Source: Oscillospiraceae bacterium (GTDB lineage Bacteria > Bacillota > Clostridia > Oscillospirales > Acutalibacteraceae). Taken from it: a stretch of 64,000 bases of DNA. The notes below the pieces were generated by a model, which was not told the origin of the DNA, did no database searches, and saw only the letters and a program-made list of their open reading frames with translations. The position numbers and the translations under genes are program-made. Position 1 is the first letter of the stretch. Every line of letters begins with the position of its first letter. The stretch spans positions 2,167 through 66,166 of the forward strand of contig JAVBNA010000020.1 of NCBI GenBank assembly GCA_031551875.1. The letters are read 5' to 3'. This document shows, in pieces, positions 9,814-35,741 of the stretch.

Positions 9814-10101
9814 CTACTTAAACAGCTTGGAGAAAAAGCCTCCGCCGCTCTTCTGCTGGTCGGAATAGGTCAGCGAATTGATTTCCCCCTCCACGGAAAG
9901 CTCGCCCGTCTCCACACTCAGCTTGCCGATGCGCAGGTTGATCCCGCGGACACACAGCTCCCCCTGTCCGGTGTACAACACGATGGTCTGATCGTCGAAG
10001 CTGTCCACATCTGACACGCCCGAAAGCGAAAGCTTTTTTCGCCCCTCCAAAATGAGGTTGTGGGGAGTTTTTACCGTTTTCATCTCCTGCTGTACTGCCA
10101 T
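9814..10101 (-). CDS. yabP: Sporulation protein YabP
   Basis: Motifs HNLILEGRKKLSLSGV and DSFDDQTIVLYT. Start set at the ATG at 10101, 9 nt after GAAAGG. Confidence 0.85.
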   Translation of the reverse strand: MAVQQEMKTVKTPHNLILEGRKKLSLSGVSDVDSFDDQTIVLYTGQGELCVRGINLRIGKLSVETGELSVEGEINSLTYSDQQKSGGGFFSKLFK

Positions 10102-10177
10102 AGGAATCATCCTTTCTTTGTGCCGGGCATGAAAAACCGCCGGCATCTATCGCATATATATGCGCCGGCGGCATTCT

Positions 10178-10447
10178 TTAGGACTGTTCCAGCTCCTGCT
10201 TTTGGATGTCCATAAATTCATACATCTCTGCGGCGTCACCCTTGGTGGCGTGCTCCGTAACGCGCAGCACCCTCGCCTTGACCGTCCGTGCGCCCAGCGT
10301 CACCTCGATCACGTCGCCGCATTTGACGTCATAGGATGCGCGGGCGGGCTTGCCGTTTACGAGAATCCGCCCGGCGTCGCACGCCTCATTGGCCACGGTG
10401 CGGCGCTTGATCAGCCGGGAAACCTTCAGATATTTGTCCAGTCTCAT
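10178..10447 (-). CDS. rqcP: S4-domain RNA-binding protein (YabO/RqcP, Hsp15-like)
   Basis: 89 aa. MRLDKYLKVSRLIKRRTVA...GRILVNG S4 fold. Synteny yabO-yabP-yabQ-divIC. Confidence 0.8.
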   Translation of the reverse strand: MRLDKYLKVSRLIKRRTVANEACDAGRILVNGKPARASYDVKCGDVIEVTLGARTVKARVLRVTEHATKGDAAEMYEFMDIQKQELEQS

Positions 10448-10459
10448 GCTTTTCTCCTT

Positions 10460-10615
10460 TAGTCGAACCTCTTGGAATTCAAGTTGTCTTTTTGGTCTGT
10501 TTTCCGCCTTGCTTCATTGTCCTCCTTGCCTTGCGTCAGCAAGGTTGCGTCGTCCGCCTCGAAAAACAAAAAACATTCTCAAAAATCCTGCCTCGTCTTT
10601 CAAGTAGTTCGACTA
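10460..10615 (-). repeat. Conserved intergenic element, copy A (possible structured leader RNA or MITE-like repeat)
   Basis: Roughly three quarters identical by eye over ~110 nt to 31960-32095, in opposite genomic orientation. Central hairpin CCTTGC-TGAC-GCAAGG. Terminal inverted repeat TAGTCGAAC/GTTCGACTA abuts the SD of rqcP. Confidence 0.6.
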
Positions 10616-10622
10616 TACAACG

Positions 10623-10657
10623 AAACCGACCTTATGCAAAAACAATAAGGTCGGTTT
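10623..10657 (-). terminator. Terminator of hup
   Basis: Arms AAACCGACCTTAT/ATAAGGTCGGTTT with a 9-nt loop, about 30 nt after the hup stop. T-rich after the stem on the minus strand. Confidence 0.65.
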
Positions 10658-29744: not shown

Positions 29745-30761
29745 TTATACAAACAGTACAGGCAGAAGATATGGCGCAATTACATTGCTAATCAGAAAAT
29801 AGCATAGGGCAATGCTCAGCACGACGGCAAAGTTAACGCCGCCCTGCTTTTTCAGTAAGAGCGGGATGTCCGCCGGGCTTTCTGCGGTGCGCGTGATGTC
29901 ACGCACCTTCCCGACACAGTGGTTGTAGTACAGCTTGTTGCTGACGCAGGCGCAGACAATGCCGATGCCAACAGCAAGCAGGAAAAGCGCCGCGGGAACC
30001 AGGAGCAGCAGATTCTCCTGCTGGCTCAGCTTGCTCCCCTCACTGTACAGGCGCATGATCGCTCCGCTGTCCGGCGGCTCGGTCAGGGAAATGCCGGCGC
30101 GCTCATAGATGCCGTTGAGCAGCGGCACCACATATGTAGCCTGGATGTAGAGCGTAGCCACGTGCAGCAACGCCATCGCCCCCGTGATCAGCGCGCCCAG
30201 CTTGTACATCTTCCGATAGATCATCCACACGCCCGAAAAAAACAGTGCGGCGAAATTGAAGCCGCCCCAGGTTTTTTGTTTTTCCATTTGCCCGAAGCGC
30301 CTCATATAATAGGCGGTGTTCTGTCCGACGAACTGCGCCACGTCCCCCGCCGACACTTCCCCGAACCGCTCGTCCGGCTGCACGCCGCCCATCGGGTCGG
30401 CCAGCCCTCCGTAACCGGGCGTCAGCGGCACGCTTGTCTCCCCCATCGGTACATGAGGCTGCCGGGGGGCGCTGCGCAGGCTGTCCCCGCCGCAAAACGC
30501 GCAGTGTTCTGCGCCCGCCTCGTTGGCTGCGCCGCATCGGTCGCAAACATATTCCATGTTGCCGTTGTCCGGACGCGTCCGTCGCTCGGGGCGCTTCCAT
30601 CCCTCTTCGGTGCCGTGCAGCGCCTCATAGTGGCAGTGACCCAGCTTGTTCCAGCAGTCCCTGTGATGGGGCGCACCGCAGGCCGGACAGGACACGACAT
30701 CGTCTCCGTCGGAAAAGGGAACGCCGCACGACGGGCACGACAGGCCTTCATATAAAAACAT
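29745..30761 (-). CDS. Membrane protein: RING-like binuclear zinc finger, zinc ribbon and DUF2628-like TM domain
   Basis: CPSCG..(12)..CPACGAPHHRDCW...HC, then CDRCGAANEAGAEHCAFCGG, then a YYMRRF...FNFAALFFSGVWMIYRKMY TM region. Confidence 0.65.
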   Translation of the reverse strand: MFLYEGLSCPSCGVPFSDGDDVVSCPACGAPHHRDCWNKLGHCHYEALHGTEEGWKRPERRTRPDNGNMEYVCDRCGAANEAGAEHCAFCGGDSLRSAPRQPHVPMGETSVPLTPGYGGLADPMGGVQPDERFGEVSAGDVAQFVGQNTAYYMRRFGQMEKQKTWGGFNFAALFFSGVWMIYRKMYKLGALITGAMALLHVATLYIQATYVVPLLNGIYERAGISLTEPPDSGAIMRLYSEGSKLSQQENLLLLVPAALFLLAVGIGIVCACVSNKLYYNHCVGKVRDITRTAESPADIPLLLKKQGGVNFAVVLSIALCYFLISNVIAPYLLPVLFV

Positions 30762-30775
30762 ATCTTTCCCCCGTT

Positions 30776-31693
30776 TTAAAATACCAGAATTTGTATGAGC
30801 AGAGCCACTGCGGCATTGAGCGCGACAAAGCAGGCAAACGAGACATAAGCGCTGCGCGCTTTGACGCCGCCCTTTTCACGGAGCATTACCAGCAGGTCGT
30901 CTGGGTTTGTCTCCTTGATTTTTGTGATCTGCCGGACACACCGTTTATAGTACAGTCGGTTGGCAAGAAAGCCCATGAGAAACATAATCCCGCCCAGCAG
31001 AAAAATCTGGAGAGCGCTCAAAAATAAATCCTCCACATAGCTTGCCGAGCCCGCGATATACAGCGCGGAAAAATAGCCCCGCACAAAGGAGGAGGCGATC
31101 ATCACGACAAAAAACACCGCACCGGGCAGAACCATTCCCCTGAAAAAGCACCAGAAGGCGCTTAAAAATGCGCCGGCATAGTTGAACACGCTCCGGCCGC
31201 CCTCTTCAATCTCCCTGAACCGGGGCAGGTAATAGCCGCTGCCCCGCCCGACATAGGCGGCCAGCTCCTCTACCGAATGGCCGCCGATGCGCTCCTTGGG
31301 GTCCATACCCGCACAGGGGTCAAGCGCAGCCTGAAGAAGGGAGTCGCCCTGTCCGGGAAAGGTAAAGGTTGCGGCAAAGGGCGGAATATCCGGACGGGTG
31401 GCGGGGGCACTTGGAAGCAGGTTCTCCCCGCATCGTTTGCAGAAAAACAGTGTGGTCTCATTTTCCTGCCCGCACACCGGACAGACAAGAACGTCGTCCC
31501 CGGGTTCTTCGTCCTCTTCACCGGCATACGCCTGCCAGGCTTTTCCCTCACTGTGCCGTTCGGCGAAAACGCACGCCCCCTGCTGCTCATAGCAGCACCG
31601 GTGGTGGGGCGCGCCGCAAGCCGGACACACCACAACGTCGTCGTCCTCAAGGAAGACCTTTTCGCACACCTGGCACTTTTGTCCAATCGGCAT
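30776..31693 (-). CDS. Paralog of 29745-30761 (RING-like zinc finger, zinc ribbon and DUF2628-like TM domain)
   Basis: CQVCE..(12)..CPACGAPHHRCCY...C, then CPVCGQENETTLFFCKRCGENL, then a YYLPRF...FNYAGAFLSAFWCFFRGM TM region. Confidence 0.65.
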   Translation of the reverse strand: MPIGQKCQVCEKVFLEDDDVVVCPACGAPHHRCCYEQQGACVFAERHSEGKAWQAYAGEEDEEPGDDVLVCPVCGQENETTLFFCKRCGENLLPSAPATRPDIPPFAATFTFPGQGDSLLQAALDPCAGMDPKERIGGHSVEELAAYVGRGSGYYLPRFREIEEGGRSVFNYAGAFLSAFWCFFRGMVLPGAVFFVVMIASSFVRGYFSALYIAGSASYVEDLFLSALQIFLLGGIMFLMGFLANRLYYKRCVRQITKIKETNPDDLLVMLREKGGVKARSAYVSFACFVALNAAVALLIQILVF

Positions 31694-31911: not shown

Positions 31912-31940
31912 TTGATATTCTAAAAATAATCGTGTATAAT
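31912..31940 (+). promoter_or_regulatory. Sigma-A-type promoter TTGATA-17-TATAAT
   Basis: -35 at 31912-31917 and -10 at 31935-31940. Drives the leader that contains element copy B and the GT2 gene. Confidence 0.6.
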
Positions 31941-31959
31941 GTAAAAGATAATTTGTTAT

Positions 31960-32095
31960 TGTCGAACCAATTCAAAGACGAGACCGGATTTTTTGAGATT
32001 ATTTTTGTCATGCGAGGCGGACGGCGCAACCTTACTGCCGTAAGGCAGAAAGACAACGAGGCCGGGCGGAAAACAGGCCGAAAGGCGACTTTAAT
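31960..32095 (+). repeat. Conserved intergenic element, copy B (possible structured leader RNA or MITE-like repeat)
   Basis: Aligns to the reverse complement of 10460-10615. Hairpin CCTTAC-TGCC-GTAAGG carries a compensatory G:C to A:T change relative to copy A. About 50 nt upstream of the GT2 start. Confidence 0.6.
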
Positions 32096-32142
32096 TTGAA
32101 GTGGTTTCACAATATTATCATACTTCTGACGTTTGAGAGGGT

Positions 32143-33210
32143 ATGGCGGTGAATGCAGCTGTTTTGATTCCCTGTCTGAATCCACAGCAGACGACAATTG
32201 AATATGTATCCTCCCTGCTCGCGCTCGGATTTCCCTCTGTAGTTGTGGTCGACGACGGAAGTGAGCCCGAATGCAGCGAGGTTTTTGCCGCGCTGAGGGC
32301 GCTGCCTGGGTGCACCGTGCTGCACCATGACAGAAACAGGGGCAAGGGCCGCGCGCTCAAGACCGGCTTTACCCATTTCCAGACCGCCTGTAAGGGACTG
32401 TCCGGCGTTGTCACGGCATACGCCGACGGGCGCTACCGGCCGGAGGATGTGCTCACGGTGGCGCGTGCGCTTGAGCGCCTGTCCCCCGCCCTCATCCTCG
32501 GCGAACGGGACACAAAGGATAAAACACTGTCGGCGCTGACCCGCGCGGGAAACCAGGTGACCAGTGTCCTGCTCCGCGTGCTCTACGGCATATCGATCCA
32601 GGACTTCCAGACCGGCCTGAGGGGATACCCCGCTGAGCTGCTGGACAGGCTTCTCACCGTGTGGGGCGAGCGGTATGAATATGAGATCAACCTCCTGCTC
32701 GCATGCATCAAGCACGCCGTCCCCATCGAGCAGGTACCGGTAGGCTCAGCCTATTACAAAAACCTCGGATCGGTGTCCCACCGGATCAGCTCGACCTTTA
32801 TGACGCTGCTTCTGGTCGTCCAGTCCTTTTTACGCTTTGCCGCCTCCTCGCTGACCTCCTCCGCGCTGGATATCGGTCTGTTTGCCGTGATGACCAAGCT
32901 GGTTCTCACCCCCTCTTTCCCTTTTTATATTGAGCTGAGCACCATTGCTGCGCGCAGCGTGTCGGCCTCGGTCAATTTCTCCCTCAACCGGAAATTTGTC
33001 TTTGGCGGCCGGGGTGCGGGAAAGAAGGCGGCCTGCCGGTTTGTATTTCTGACACTCGCTCAAATGCTCGCTTCGGCGCTTCTTGTCAATATTCTGGTCA
33101 ACCTGACCGGCATTGACGAGGTGCTGATTAAGCTGGTGGTGGACGTCACGCTGTTTTTCATTAGTTATCAGGTTCAGCACCGCTGGATATTTGAAAAGAA
33201 AAAGAATTAA
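32143..33210 (+). CDS. Family-2 glycosyltransferase fused to a C-terminal GtrA-like membrane domain
   Basis: VLIPCLNP..., VVVVDDGSE and NRGKGRALKTGF motifs. C-terminal four-TM GtrA signature (SVNFSLNRKFVFGG). Start could be the GTG at 32149. Confidence 0.8.
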   Translation: MAVNAAVLIPCLNPQQTTIEYVSSLLALGFPSVVVVDDGSEPECSEVFAALRALPGCTVLHHDRNRGKGRALKTGFTHFQTACKGLSGVVTAYADGRYRPEDVLTVARALERLSPALILGERDTKDKTLSALTRAGNQVTSVLLRVLYGISIQDFQTGLRGYPAELLDRLLTVWGERYEYEINLLLACIKHAVPIEQVPVGSAYYKNLGSVSHRISSTFMTLLLVVQSFLRFAASSLTSSALDIGLFAVMTKLVLTPSFPFYIELSTIAARSVSASVNFSLNRKFVFGGRGAGKKAACRFVFLTLAQMLASALLVNILVNLTGIDEVLIKLVVDVTLFFISYQVQHRWIFEKKKN

Positions 33211-33362: not shown

Positions 33363-35741
33363 ATGAACAATGATTCCAACAGGCCCTCTCCCCGCCGGTA
33401 TGCCCCTTCAGACCGCACGCCTTCGGGTCGATATGCGTCCTCCTCCCATTCGGGACAATCCCGCGGCCAGTCCCGTCCGCGCCCGCCGCAAAGCCGAACC
33501 GACTCTGGGCGTCCCTATGCGTCAGACCGACGTCCGGGCGAACGCCCAGCGCCGCGGCCTCAGCCCTCCCCGCAGCGTCCCCGTCCCGAATATGACTTTG
33601 ACTATGAGGTCGAACACGCCCATACACAGCGGCCGCACCGCGAATCGACGCCGGTAAACCGCCGCGGACCCACGGGGATGGGAAATCAATCAAGCAGAGG
33701 ATATGCCCCATATGGCAGTGGCGGACGAGGCCCATCGCGTGCTTCCGCTTACCACTTTTCCATTGATCTGCGCATGGCCCTGCGGCTGTTCCTCTTCTTT
33801 TTGGCGTCTTTTTTCTGGCAGGAATCGATTTTCCGGATTTTTATCTACCAGAGCTTTTTTGACAGCGCCCTGATTTTCTCCACTTTCTTTTCTGTCGCGA
33901 CGGCGGCGCTGTTTGCCCTGTTTTCCACCTTCGGGAGTGCGCGAACCAACCGCCTTGTAGCGGTGATTCTGAGCTTTATTATATCCATGCTCTTTTGTAC
34001 GCAATACGTCTACTACGGCTTTTTCAAGGTGCCCCTCTCGCTTTACTCGATGGGGCAGGCCGACCAGGTCGCCCAGTTCGCCGGGGACATTATTTCGTAT
34101 ATATTTTCCAACCTAATCCAATTGATCCTTCTGCTGCTGCCCACCGTGCTGCTCTTTTTCGTCGGGCCGCGGCTGGAACTTTTTGAAAAAACCATTGTAA
34201 AGGAAAAGCTTCTGCTGGGCGCCGCAGCGCTGGGTTCTTTTCTGTTCACCACGCTGATCCTGGCTATTTTGGGTTCAAACAACCTTGCCCACTCGGTCTA
34301 CTTCAATATCAACGACGCCGACACCGCACAGCGCACGCTGGGCGTGGTCACGAACATGCGGCTTGACCTGACGCGATCGGTCTTTGGCTTTGAGGAGTAC
34401 ATCCCCGAAGAGGACTGGGGCGATGATGAGCCGCCCTCCCCGTCGGACACCGCCTCGGGCGGCAACACCTCAGACAACACCTCCTCCCTGCCCGAAACCA
34501 CCTATGAACCCAATATCATGTCCATTGATTTTGACCAGCTGATCTCCGACACCAAAAGCGACACGGTCAAAAAGATGCACGAGTATTTCAAGGACGTGGA
34601 ACCCACGCTGAAGAATGAATACACCGGCATGTTTAAGGACTGCAACCTGATCTTTATGACCTGCGAGGCGTTCTCGCGGCTCGCGGTCAGCGAGAAATAC
34701 ACACCCACCCTATATAAGCTGGTCAATGAAGGGCTGACCTTCAACAATTTCTATAATCCCGTTTGGAGCGTGTCCACCTCCGACGGTGAATACGTCGCCT
34801 GCACAGGCCTGATTCCCAAAAGCGGCGTATGGAGCTTCCACCTGTCCGGCAGCAATTCCATGCCCTTCTGTCTGGGCAATCAGTTCGGGAAGCTTCCCGG
34901 CTACGAGAAGCCGCGCGCGTGGCACAACCACACCTGGACCTACTACAAGCGAAACATCTCTCACCCCAACATGGGCTATGACTACAAGGGCGTCGGCCAT
35001 GGGCTGGACGTCAAAAAATCCTGGCCTGAGTCCGACCTCGAGATGATGGAAAAGACGCTGCCTGAGTATATTAATGCTGAGAAGTTCCACTCGTACTATA
35101 TGACGGTCAGCGGGCACATGCTGTACAGCTTCTCGGGCAACGCGATGGCTTCCAAAAACAAGGAGGCGGTTGCCGATTTGGGGCTTTCGGAGCAGGCACA
35201 GGCATACATTGCCTGTAACATTGAGCTGGACAAGGCAATGAAATATTTGATCGACCAGCTGGAGGCCGCCGGTAAGCTGGACAACACGGTCATCGTGTTC
35301 GGCGGTGACCACTACCCCTACGGCCTCGACAAAAGCGCGATCGACGAACTGGCCGGTCACACGGTTGAGCCCAACTTCGAGCTGTACAAGAGCTCCCTTG
35401 TGATCTGGAAAAACGGTATGCCCAAAACCGAAATCGACAAGCCCATTTCCAGCCTTGATATCCTGCCCACCATCTCCAACCTCTTTGGCCTGGAATACGA
35501 TTCCCGTCTGATGATGGGGCGTGACATTTTCTCCACCACGCCGGGGCTGGTTATGTTCAAGGATCGGAGCTGGCTGACCGACAAAGCGACCTACAACGCC
35601 AAGACCAAGGAAACCCAAAGCCTGAACGGCGAGCCGGTGGATGAGGATTATGTCAAATCCATCAACCGAGAGGTTTCCAACCGCTTCAAATATTCCACAC
35701 AAATTTTGGAAAATGACTATTACGCCAAGGTTTTCAAGTAG
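33363..35741 (+). CDS. LTA-synthase/sulfatase-family phosphoglycerol or alditol-phosphate transferase
   Basis: 792 aa. A ~120-aa Arg/Pro/Ser-rich N-terminus, a multi-TM block, and an extracytoplasmic sulfatase domain (NLIFMTCEAFS, WSVSTSDGEY, GGDHYPYG). Confidence 0.75.
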   Translation: MNNDSNRPSPRRYAPSDRTPSGRYASSSHSGQSRGQSRPRPPQSRTDSGRPYASDRRPGERPAPRPQPSPQRPRPEYDFDYEVEHAHTQRPHRESTPVNRRGPTGMGNQSSRGYAPYGSGGRGPSRASAYHFSIDLRMALRLFLFFLASFFWQESIFRIFIYQSFFDSALIFSTFFSVATAALFALFSTFGSARTNRLVAVILSFIISMLFCTQYVYYGFFKVPLSLYSMGQADQVAQFAGDIISYIFSNLIQLILLLLPTVLLFFVGPRLELFEKTIVKEKLLLGAAALGSFLFTTLILAILGSNNLAHSVYFNINDADTAQRTLGVVTNMRLDLTRSVFGFEEYIPEEDWGDDEPPSPSDTASGGNTSDNTSSLPETTYEPNIMSIDFDQLISDTKSDTVKKMHEYFKDVEPTLKNEYTGMFKDCNLIFMTCEAFSRLAVSEKYTPTLYKLVNEGLTFNNFYNPVWSVSTSDGEYVACTGLIPKSGVWSFHLSGSNSMPFCLGNQFGKLPGYEKPRAWHNHTWTYYKRNISHPNMGYDYKGVGHGLDVKKSWPESDLEMMEKTLPEYINAEKFHSYYMTVSGHMLYSFSGNAMASKNKEAVADLGLSEQAQAYIACNIELDKAMKYLIDQLEAAGKLDNTVIVFGGDHYPYGLDKSAIDELAGHTVEPNFELYKSSLVIWKNGMPKTEIDKPISSLDILPTISNLFGLEYDSRLMMGRDIFSTTPGLVMFKDRSWLTDKATYNAKTKETQSLNGEPVDEDYVKSINREVSNRFKYSTQILENDYYAKVFK

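Follow-up and report, generated by a model that had tools for sequence, protein, structure and literature searches.

We consider it very probable (about 85%) that two segments of ~155 bp in the window, i.e. the complete 64-kb stretch of DNA analysed here, are copies of a bacterial MITE that inserted before two unrelated genes, namely rqcP (yabO; copy A) and a gene coding for a GT2/GtrA-domain glycosyltransferase (copy B). Insertion polymorphism, TA flanks, inverted termini, dispersed copies and empty orthologous sites were all observed. Compared by published description with the MITEs already known, the element is a new family, divided into two subfamilies, of uncultured spore-forming Clostridia. 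It is thus a new family within a known MITE type, and no new kind of system.

Bacterial MITEs are non-coding elements of less than 200 bp, with terminal inverted repeats carrying 5'-TA-3' and a target-site duplication. They are A+T-rich relative to their hosts, give rise to transcripts with long stem-loops, and frequently form part of gene transcripts, at the 5' or the 3' end. Their mobility is inferred from the comparison of filled and empty sites (PMC2229807, PMC3184786). The first-pass annotation of this DNA had taken copy A for a conserved, structured leader in front of rqcP-yabP-yabQ, and had named a MITE-like repeat as the alternative. Our analyses agree that the sequence is real, repeated, intergenic and strongly folding, and that it holds a leader position before rqcP and before the GT2/GtrA gene. 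Nevertheless, the alternative is the one supported, on account of the small size of the element, the lack of a conserved ORF, its inverted termini, its TA flanks, its G+C content below that of the host and the occurrence of filled and empty sites, and the conserved-leader reading is largely refuted.

Copies of the element and their insertion sites

The resemblance between the two window copies was borne out by a blastn search of the minus-strand sequence of ~10440-10640 against the window, in which copies A and B were 78.3% identical over 157 nt (E=6.75e-23), the plus-strand segment 31953-32106 being the single further match of copy A in the 64 kb. The mean column identity of their MAFFT alignment was 82%, and it contained all the common blocks that the first-pass annotation had singled out (AAAGACGAG, GGATTTTT, CGAGGCGGACGxCGCAACC, GACAA and GGCGGAAAACAGxCC). 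Likewise, the boundaries drawn there for copy A (10460-10615) match those of the element exactly, and both window copies lie, as it had described, in sense to the downstream gene. A sigma-70-like promoter match was found just upstream of each. The features of both loci are collected in Table 1.

Table 1. Positions in the window of copies A and B and of the features adjoining them (SD, Shine-Dalgarno sequence).
Feature	Position	Strand	Remarks
Probable MITE copy A	10460..10615	-	156 nt; between hbs (HU) terminator and rqcP/yabO SD; blastn to copy B
Left terminal inverted repeat of copy A, TAGTCGAAC	10607..10615	-	perfect 9-bp complement of 10460-10468; outer helix in MFE
Right terminal inverted repeat of copy A, GTTCGACTA	10460..10468	-	abuts rqcP SD
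TA at left end of copy A, putative target-site duplication	10616..10617	-	by analogy with TA/TA of copies B and D
AAGGAG SD and ATG of rqcP/yabO	10445..10459	-	directly 3' of copy A
Intrinsic terminator of hbs, AAACCGACCTTA...TAAGGTCGGTTT	10623..10657	-	copy A 7 nt downstream; arms kept in L124 and L126
Sigma-70-like match TTTGCA-17-TATAGT	10612..10640	-	consensus scan; overlaps element tip
Probable MITE copy B	31959..32112	+	154 nt; TTGTCGAACC...GGTTTCACAA; 5' UTR of GT2/GtrA glycosyltransferase gene
TA, left target-site duplication of copy B	31957..31958	+	
TA, right target-site duplication of copy B	32113..32114	+	followed by TTATCAT, which directly follows AAGATA in L131
GT2 promoter TTGATA-17-TATAAT	31912..31940	+	11/12 consensus match; kept in L130 and L131
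GT2 + GtrA-domain glycosyltransferase gene	32143..33210	+	PF00535, PF04138; downstream of copy B

Two further copies were detected in related loci. Copy C (L130:11472-11628) was recovered with an nhmmer profile of copies A and B (E=9.5e-9). This copy overlaps, at its left tip, with the stop codon of an orphan gene coding for a 200-aa membrane protein, for which a search of homologues matched only the protein itself, and a strong intrinsic terminator stands 5 nt behind it, the next gene being convergent and clpC-like. Copy D (L152:6826-6983, 158 bp, E=6.7e-40) lies between a terminator-like hairpin that follows yabO and the ribosome binding site (RBS) of yabP. An nhmmer profile of the four copies recovered copy A at 10616-10461 (E=9.7e-42) and copy B at 31958-32111 (E=4.7e-42), and found no further copies in the ~270 kb of the window and related loci. 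Two of the copies belong to the 64-kb window; the other two lie on contigs of 8.6 and 12.5 kb that belong to a relative and derive from one sample. The copies occupy 5' UTRs in two cases, an intercistronic spacer in one and, in the last, a 3' end that precedes a terminator.

Copy lengths range from 153 to 158 bp, and pairwise identities (76% for A and B, 91% for C and D, 58-62% between the pairs) separate the two subfamilies. The G+C content of copies A and B is 45-48%, compared with 57% for the window; the contrast is weaker for copies C and D (49-52%, in contigs of 50-52%). No ORF is common to the copies. Short ORFs were read in A, B and C and differ in frame and length, and coding of a small peptide was ruled out on the grounds that the frames differ between copies.

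The inverted termini agree at 9/9 positions in copy A, 8/10 in copy B and 17/19 of the first positions in copy D, while copy C has 5-bp tips and partial matches beyond them; from tip to tip, the inverted repeats read TAGCCGTTTAACTTGAAAA / TTTTCAAGTTAATTGGCTA. In copy A, the 9-bp repeat reported by the first-pass annotation (10615-10607 and 10468-10460) is real and adjoins the AAGGAG of rqcP. The dinucleotides that flank the copies are TA/AA (A), TA/TA (B), CA/TA (C) and TA/TA (D), that is, TA at six of the eight copy ends, with the remaining two one base off, as in the right flank of copy A (10458-10459), where AA is one substitution away from TA.

Both forms of one insertion site were found in a pair of contigs from two samples, L152 and L153, which code for the same RqcP protein (P0003). 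The two contigs agree in 99.9% of 1143 nt on one flank and in 100% of 205 nt on the other, with 160 additional bp in L152. The filled junction in L152 reads ...TTTTTTTG-TA-[TAGCCGTTTAAC...TTAATTGGCTA]-TA-TTTATG and the empty one in L153, which holds a single TA, reads ...TTTTTTTGTATTTATG; over a longer stretch, the empty site is GGGATATTTTTTTGTATTTATGAAAG and the filled one GGGATATTTTTTTG-TA-[TAGCCGTTTAACTTG...CAAGTTAATTGGCTA]-TA-TTTATGAAAG. With a 2-bp duplication at a palindromic TA, this single site fits both a 158-bp element with TA duplication and a 160-bp insertion beside TA. The first-pass annotation had regarded target-site duplications, in copies scattered in both orientations, as the mark of a MITE and as an argument against a leader. 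The duplications were found, with TA on both sides of the element in the L152/L153 pair; both orientations were not, all four copies being in sense to local transcription, a bias that is not significant at that number.

For each of the sites A, B and D, one lineage has the element and another lacks it. As regards site D, the spacer between yabO and yabP in the window contains the same hairpin and no element. Around RqcP homologues of 80-85% identity, the gene order spoVB/murJ-like, mazG, hbs, rqcP, yabP, yabQ, divIC is always kept, the matches including Solibaculum, Hydrogeniiclostridium and Acutalibacter. The product of rqcP/yabO carries a Pfam S4 domain. The hbs-rqcP spacer (87-172 nt) is devoid of the element in L120, L124, L126, L128 and L152/L153, and in L124 and L126 the arms of the hbs terminator are kept and followed by unrelated sequence. 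Among the traced contigs, copy A itself is present only in L119, which belongs to the same strain and is 100% identical. It occupies nearly the whole gap between the hbs terminator and the rqcP SD, and the spacer reconstructed without it measures ~10 nt.

At the glycosyltransferase locus, the element is not found upstream of the two closest GT2 orthologues, those of L130 and L131 (68-70% amino-acid identity), both of which keep the GATTGATATTCT...GTGTATAAT promoter region. The pieces AAGATA|TTATCAT are contiguous in L131, and the same two pieces are split by the insert in the window. Copy B is preceded by a promoter that three lineages have kept and followed by the RBS, and should for that reason form part of the 5' UTR of the GT2 gene.

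Searches beyond these loci produced no additional members. A scan of genome contigs with CGAGGCGGACGNCGCAACC gave at least 118 loci, and all those listed were chance matches in high-G+C genomes, the pattern being too G+C-rich. In metagenomes, the pattern GCGGACGNCGCAACCN{25,45}GGCGGAAAAC had 0 matches and GTCGAACNANTTNAAAGACGAG had 3 chance matches, inside coding sequence; both patterns were made from copies A and B only and would miss the C/D subfamily. Four patterns run against viral contigs gave 0 real copies, and copies A and D had no blastn match in plasmids and phages. No IS with matching ends was found in the window or in ~270 kb of related loci, nor were IS-like inverted repeats or further element termini found elsewhere in the window.

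The element is likely moved by a TA-targeting DDE transposase of the IS630/Tc1-mariner kind, as judged from the TA target only. The gene for such an enzyme would lie elsewhere, and its product would recognise the terminal inverted repeats, whose tips both read TAGYCG...; the element would be cut out and then inserted at a TA dinucleotide, with duplication of the TA. The sites of insertion are T-rich and often beside intrinsic terminators. An intrinsic terminator stands only a few nt away from three of the four copies, which suggests that insertion prefers terminator T-tracts as a target. T-rich sequence ending in TA is seen before the insertion points as CGTTG|TA, TTTGT|TA and TTTTG|TA (window 10616-10621 and 31952-31958; L152:6819-6825).

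Folding of the element and alternative explanations

A long hairpin is predicted in all copies, with MFE values of -47 to -56 kcal/mol (copy A, -51.6 kcal/mol and z -4.7; copy B, -47.8 kcal/mol and z -2.6). In the four-copy consensus, 45 pairs join the left and right arms into one long hairpin, and 90.5% of cells are paired compared with 40-54% in slid controls. Changes on both sides preserve 11 of the 45 pairs, as against 1-4 in slid controls, in what are effectively two independent lineages. Seven of these 11 compensated pairs sit in the outer helix, which the inverted termini form; since a single transposase has to bind the two ends, co-variation is to be expected there in any case. With RNAalifold, the covariation term was close to zero, both with three copies (+0.8) and with four (-0.75). 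The sense strand folds better than the antisense strand by 9-12 kcal/mol in copies A, B and C, owing to conserved G-U pairs such as those of UUUUUGU with GCGGAAA.

The first-pass annotation had also pointed to a compensated central hairpin (CCTTGC-TGAC-GCAAGG in copy A, CCTTAC-TGCC-GTAAGG in copy B). The G:C to A:U change is indeed present, but the hairpin is specific to copies A and B and was not recovered in C and D. The apical hairpin was consequently discarded as a conserved motif, with a z of -0.9 in copy C, another MFE register in copy B and a position outside the four-copy consensus.

A core is invariant in 4/4 copies and consists of TTTTTG(T/C)-N5-GAGGCGGA, ACAA(C/T) and GGCGGAA (window 10535-10575 and 10492-10512 on the minus strand, 32003-32020 and 32064-32076 on the plus strand); the motif G(A/G)GGCGGA occurs twice, in direct orientation. 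Between the subfamilies, this internal core is better conserved than the termini, which is the opposite of what would be predicted from transposase recognition alone. Together with the number of distinct copies found in the window and related loci, which is only four, the failure to find a matching IS there and the two ways of reading the L152/L153 junction, this pattern of conservation speaks against the MITE reading. Furthermore, the sense orientation of the 4/4 copies and the better fold of the sense strand hint at selection at the RNA level. It might accordingly be asked whether co-option has turned a MITE into a portable RNA module, the conserved core, the uniform orientation and the sense-strand fold being the result of selection for an RNA-level function; we hold this to be rather unlikely. 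If it were so, the element could act as a binding site for an RNA-binding protein or RNase that tunes the stability or translation of its neighbours, including the rqcP-yabP-yabQ sporulation/ribosome-rescue operon, and a regulatory signal would have spread through the genome by insertion.

Several of the same observations could be explained by a cis-regulatory structured RNA, i.e. a riboswitch-like or protein-binding leader of rqcP-yabP-yabQ and of the GT2 gene, acting for instance by RBS occlusion via the terminal helix. The window copies are in sense, in leader position and behind promoter-like sites; their folds are significant; the compensated pairs, the conserved G-U pairs that make the fold strand-specific and the internal core common to all four copies point the same way; and the right arm of copy A abuts the SD. 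However, the element is absent before rqcP in every relative examined, as it is before the GT2 orthologues, and in relatives one copy follows the 3' end of a gene while the other separates yabO from yabP. Forms with and without the element occur in a single species, and a TA duplication accompanies the insert. Its distance from the RBS varies from 0-1 nt (A) to ~30 nt (B), copy C having no downstream gene; the RBS occlusion suggested by the first-pass annotation is hence not a common property, the right arm of copy B ending ~30 nt before the start codon and that of copy C being followed by a terminator. Neither a conserved terminator/anti-terminator nor an internal terminator was found in the copies. 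The covariation term near zero is a further argument against such an RNA, and the two lineages provide few independent compensatory events, which are also expected of transposase-bound inverted repeats. The first-pass annotation had not recognised a known riboswitch or leader family in the sequence, and no Rfam family matches it: Rfam 15 gave 0 matches at gathering score across the window, and at E<=10 only chance-level matches (E 0.08-8) overlapped copies A, B or D. We therefore regard a regulatory leader as quite improbable.

It is more doubtful still that the element belongs to another mobile class, either IS200/IS605-type, mobilised in single-stranded form by a Y1 (HUH) transposase, or REP-like, moved by a RAYT, with recognition of hairpins in both cases. 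The copies are rich in hairpins, fold asymmetrically between strands, keep one orientation relative to transcription and lie beside hairpin terminators, and one site also fits an insertion 3' of a fixed ..GTA motif without duplication. Inverted tips and symmetric TA are, however, the classical signature of a cut-and-paste DDE mechanism, and the element consists of ~155 bp of unique sequence as opposed to the 20-40 bp of a REP palindrome. IS200/IS605 elements are not known to have terminal inverted repeats or to produce duplications.

Finally, a small RNA gene, or a 3'/5' UTR-derived sRNA, duplicated by recombination and not by transposition would account for the stable fold, the promoter-like sites before copies A and B and the strong terminator after copy C, but is hardly credible given that copies A, B and D lack a terminator and continue into the gene that follows, that there is no Rfam match and that recombination does not give a precise TA-flanked filled/empty pair.

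Comparison with known repeats and expected effects

The closest parallels of the MITE family described here are found among short repeats of other bacteria. RUP, which measures 107 bp, is a MITE of Streptococcus pneumoniae for which mobilisation by IS630-Spn1, at TA sites, has been proposed (PMC2229807). Like RUP, our element is a short, non-coding and intergenic sequence of Firmicutes, with inverted termini, TA at the termini, insertion at TA and a stem-loop (PMC2229807); it differs in length (155-158 bp vs 107 bp), in its uncultured sporulating Clostridia host, and in its conserved core and uniform sense orientation. The Correia/NEMIS elements are Neisseria MITEs of 104-157 bp, whose hairpins have been proposed as RNase III substrates and which can carry promoters (PMC2229807, PMC3184786). 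They share with our element a similar size, inverted termini, TA duplication, a frequent location 5' of genes, co-transcription and a long hairpin (PMC2229807, PMC3184786), whereas, in a comparison by description, the host phylum is unrelated and no IHF site or internal promoter is conserved among the four copies. ERIC/IRU sequences (~127 bp) occur in enterobacteria, where orientation-dependent effects on mRNA stability have been reported, and resemble our element as imperfect palindromes in transcribed intergenic regions, with TA at the termini and duplications (PMC3184786). The length of the inverted termini (7 contiguous pairs in ERIC), the host and the sequence are different, and a recent insertion polymorphism is seen here. 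With Rfam riboswitch and leader families the element has in common the 5' UTR position, the stable fold and some compensated pairs; unlike them, it is mobile, matches no Rfam model and has neither orthologous conservation nor an expression platform.

Copies A and B are expected to be co-transcribed with the genes they precede, which would place a hairpin of about -47 to -52 kcal/mol in the 5' UTR, so that a strong RNA hairpin has probably been added to both transcripts. Hairpin-dependent RNA processing or stability, as in Correia and ERIC, is a plausible consequence by analogy. We infer that effects of this sort on expression would be a by-product of insertion, with no evolved leader mechanism.

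Recognizing the element as a probable MITE avoids a mis-annotation, since the segment resembles a candidate new riboswitch or leader before rqcP. It also documents a recently active TA-target MITE family in uncultured spore-forming Clostridia, a group in which repeats are poorly catalogued. Such repeats break assemblies, and strain-level insertion polymorphisms are usable as markers. Besides that, the copies constitute natural experiments in which a hairpin of about -50 kcal/mol has been placed in a 5' UTR or operon spacer (rqcP, yabP and a cell-envelope glycosyltransferase), and the L152 and L153 strains allow a direct test of the effect of a MITE on expression.

Further features of the two loci

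The sigma-70-like match at the left end of copy A spans the junction with the host sequence: its -10 hexamer, TATAGT, is made up of the flanking TA and the element tip TAGT, and TTTGCA is located in the terminator loop. A junction promoter is thus possible, as predicted from the consensus scan; were it used, transcripts would begin within the left inverted repeat, and the right arm beside the SD would be left unpaired. An internal promoter candidate in copy A (TTGAAA-17-GAGAAT) was rejected, as it is not kept in copies C and D.

In the hbs-yabO spacer of L124, a sequence at positions 9968-9982 (GAATTGGCTATAGAA) shares 14/15 positions with the right terminal repeat of copies C and D. It may have been left behind, as a solo terminus, by an old insertion in the spacer that copy A occupies in the window, or else be a -10-like motif or a chance resemblance.

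The hairpin located between the rqcP/yabO stop codon and the yabP RBS is terminator- or attenuator-like (window 10132-10172, minus strand; L152:6770-6822; and its L153 equivalent). Its architecture, an apical GCGCATATATATGCG palindrome followed by a T-tract, is common to the window and the L152/L153 species, and it may represent a conserved intercistronic terminator or attenuator within the operon. Copy D is inserted right behind its T-tract.

Divergent from the GT2 gene, the window carries two tandem paralogous genes for zinc-ribbon membrane proteins (29745-30761 and 30776-31693, both on the minus strand). L130 and L131 have a dockerin-domain gene in place of this pair, so that the region upstream of copy B is not syntenic. 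On the other side, between the GT2 gene and a sulfatase (LTA-synthase-like) gene, lies a low-complexity, internally repetitive stretch (window 33363-33800, plus strand; L130:7739-8206, minus strand). It gave rise to a spurious antisense ORF call in L130, and in the window it corresponds to a long N-terminal extension, rich in Pro/Arg/Ser, of a 792-aa sulfatase-domain protein.
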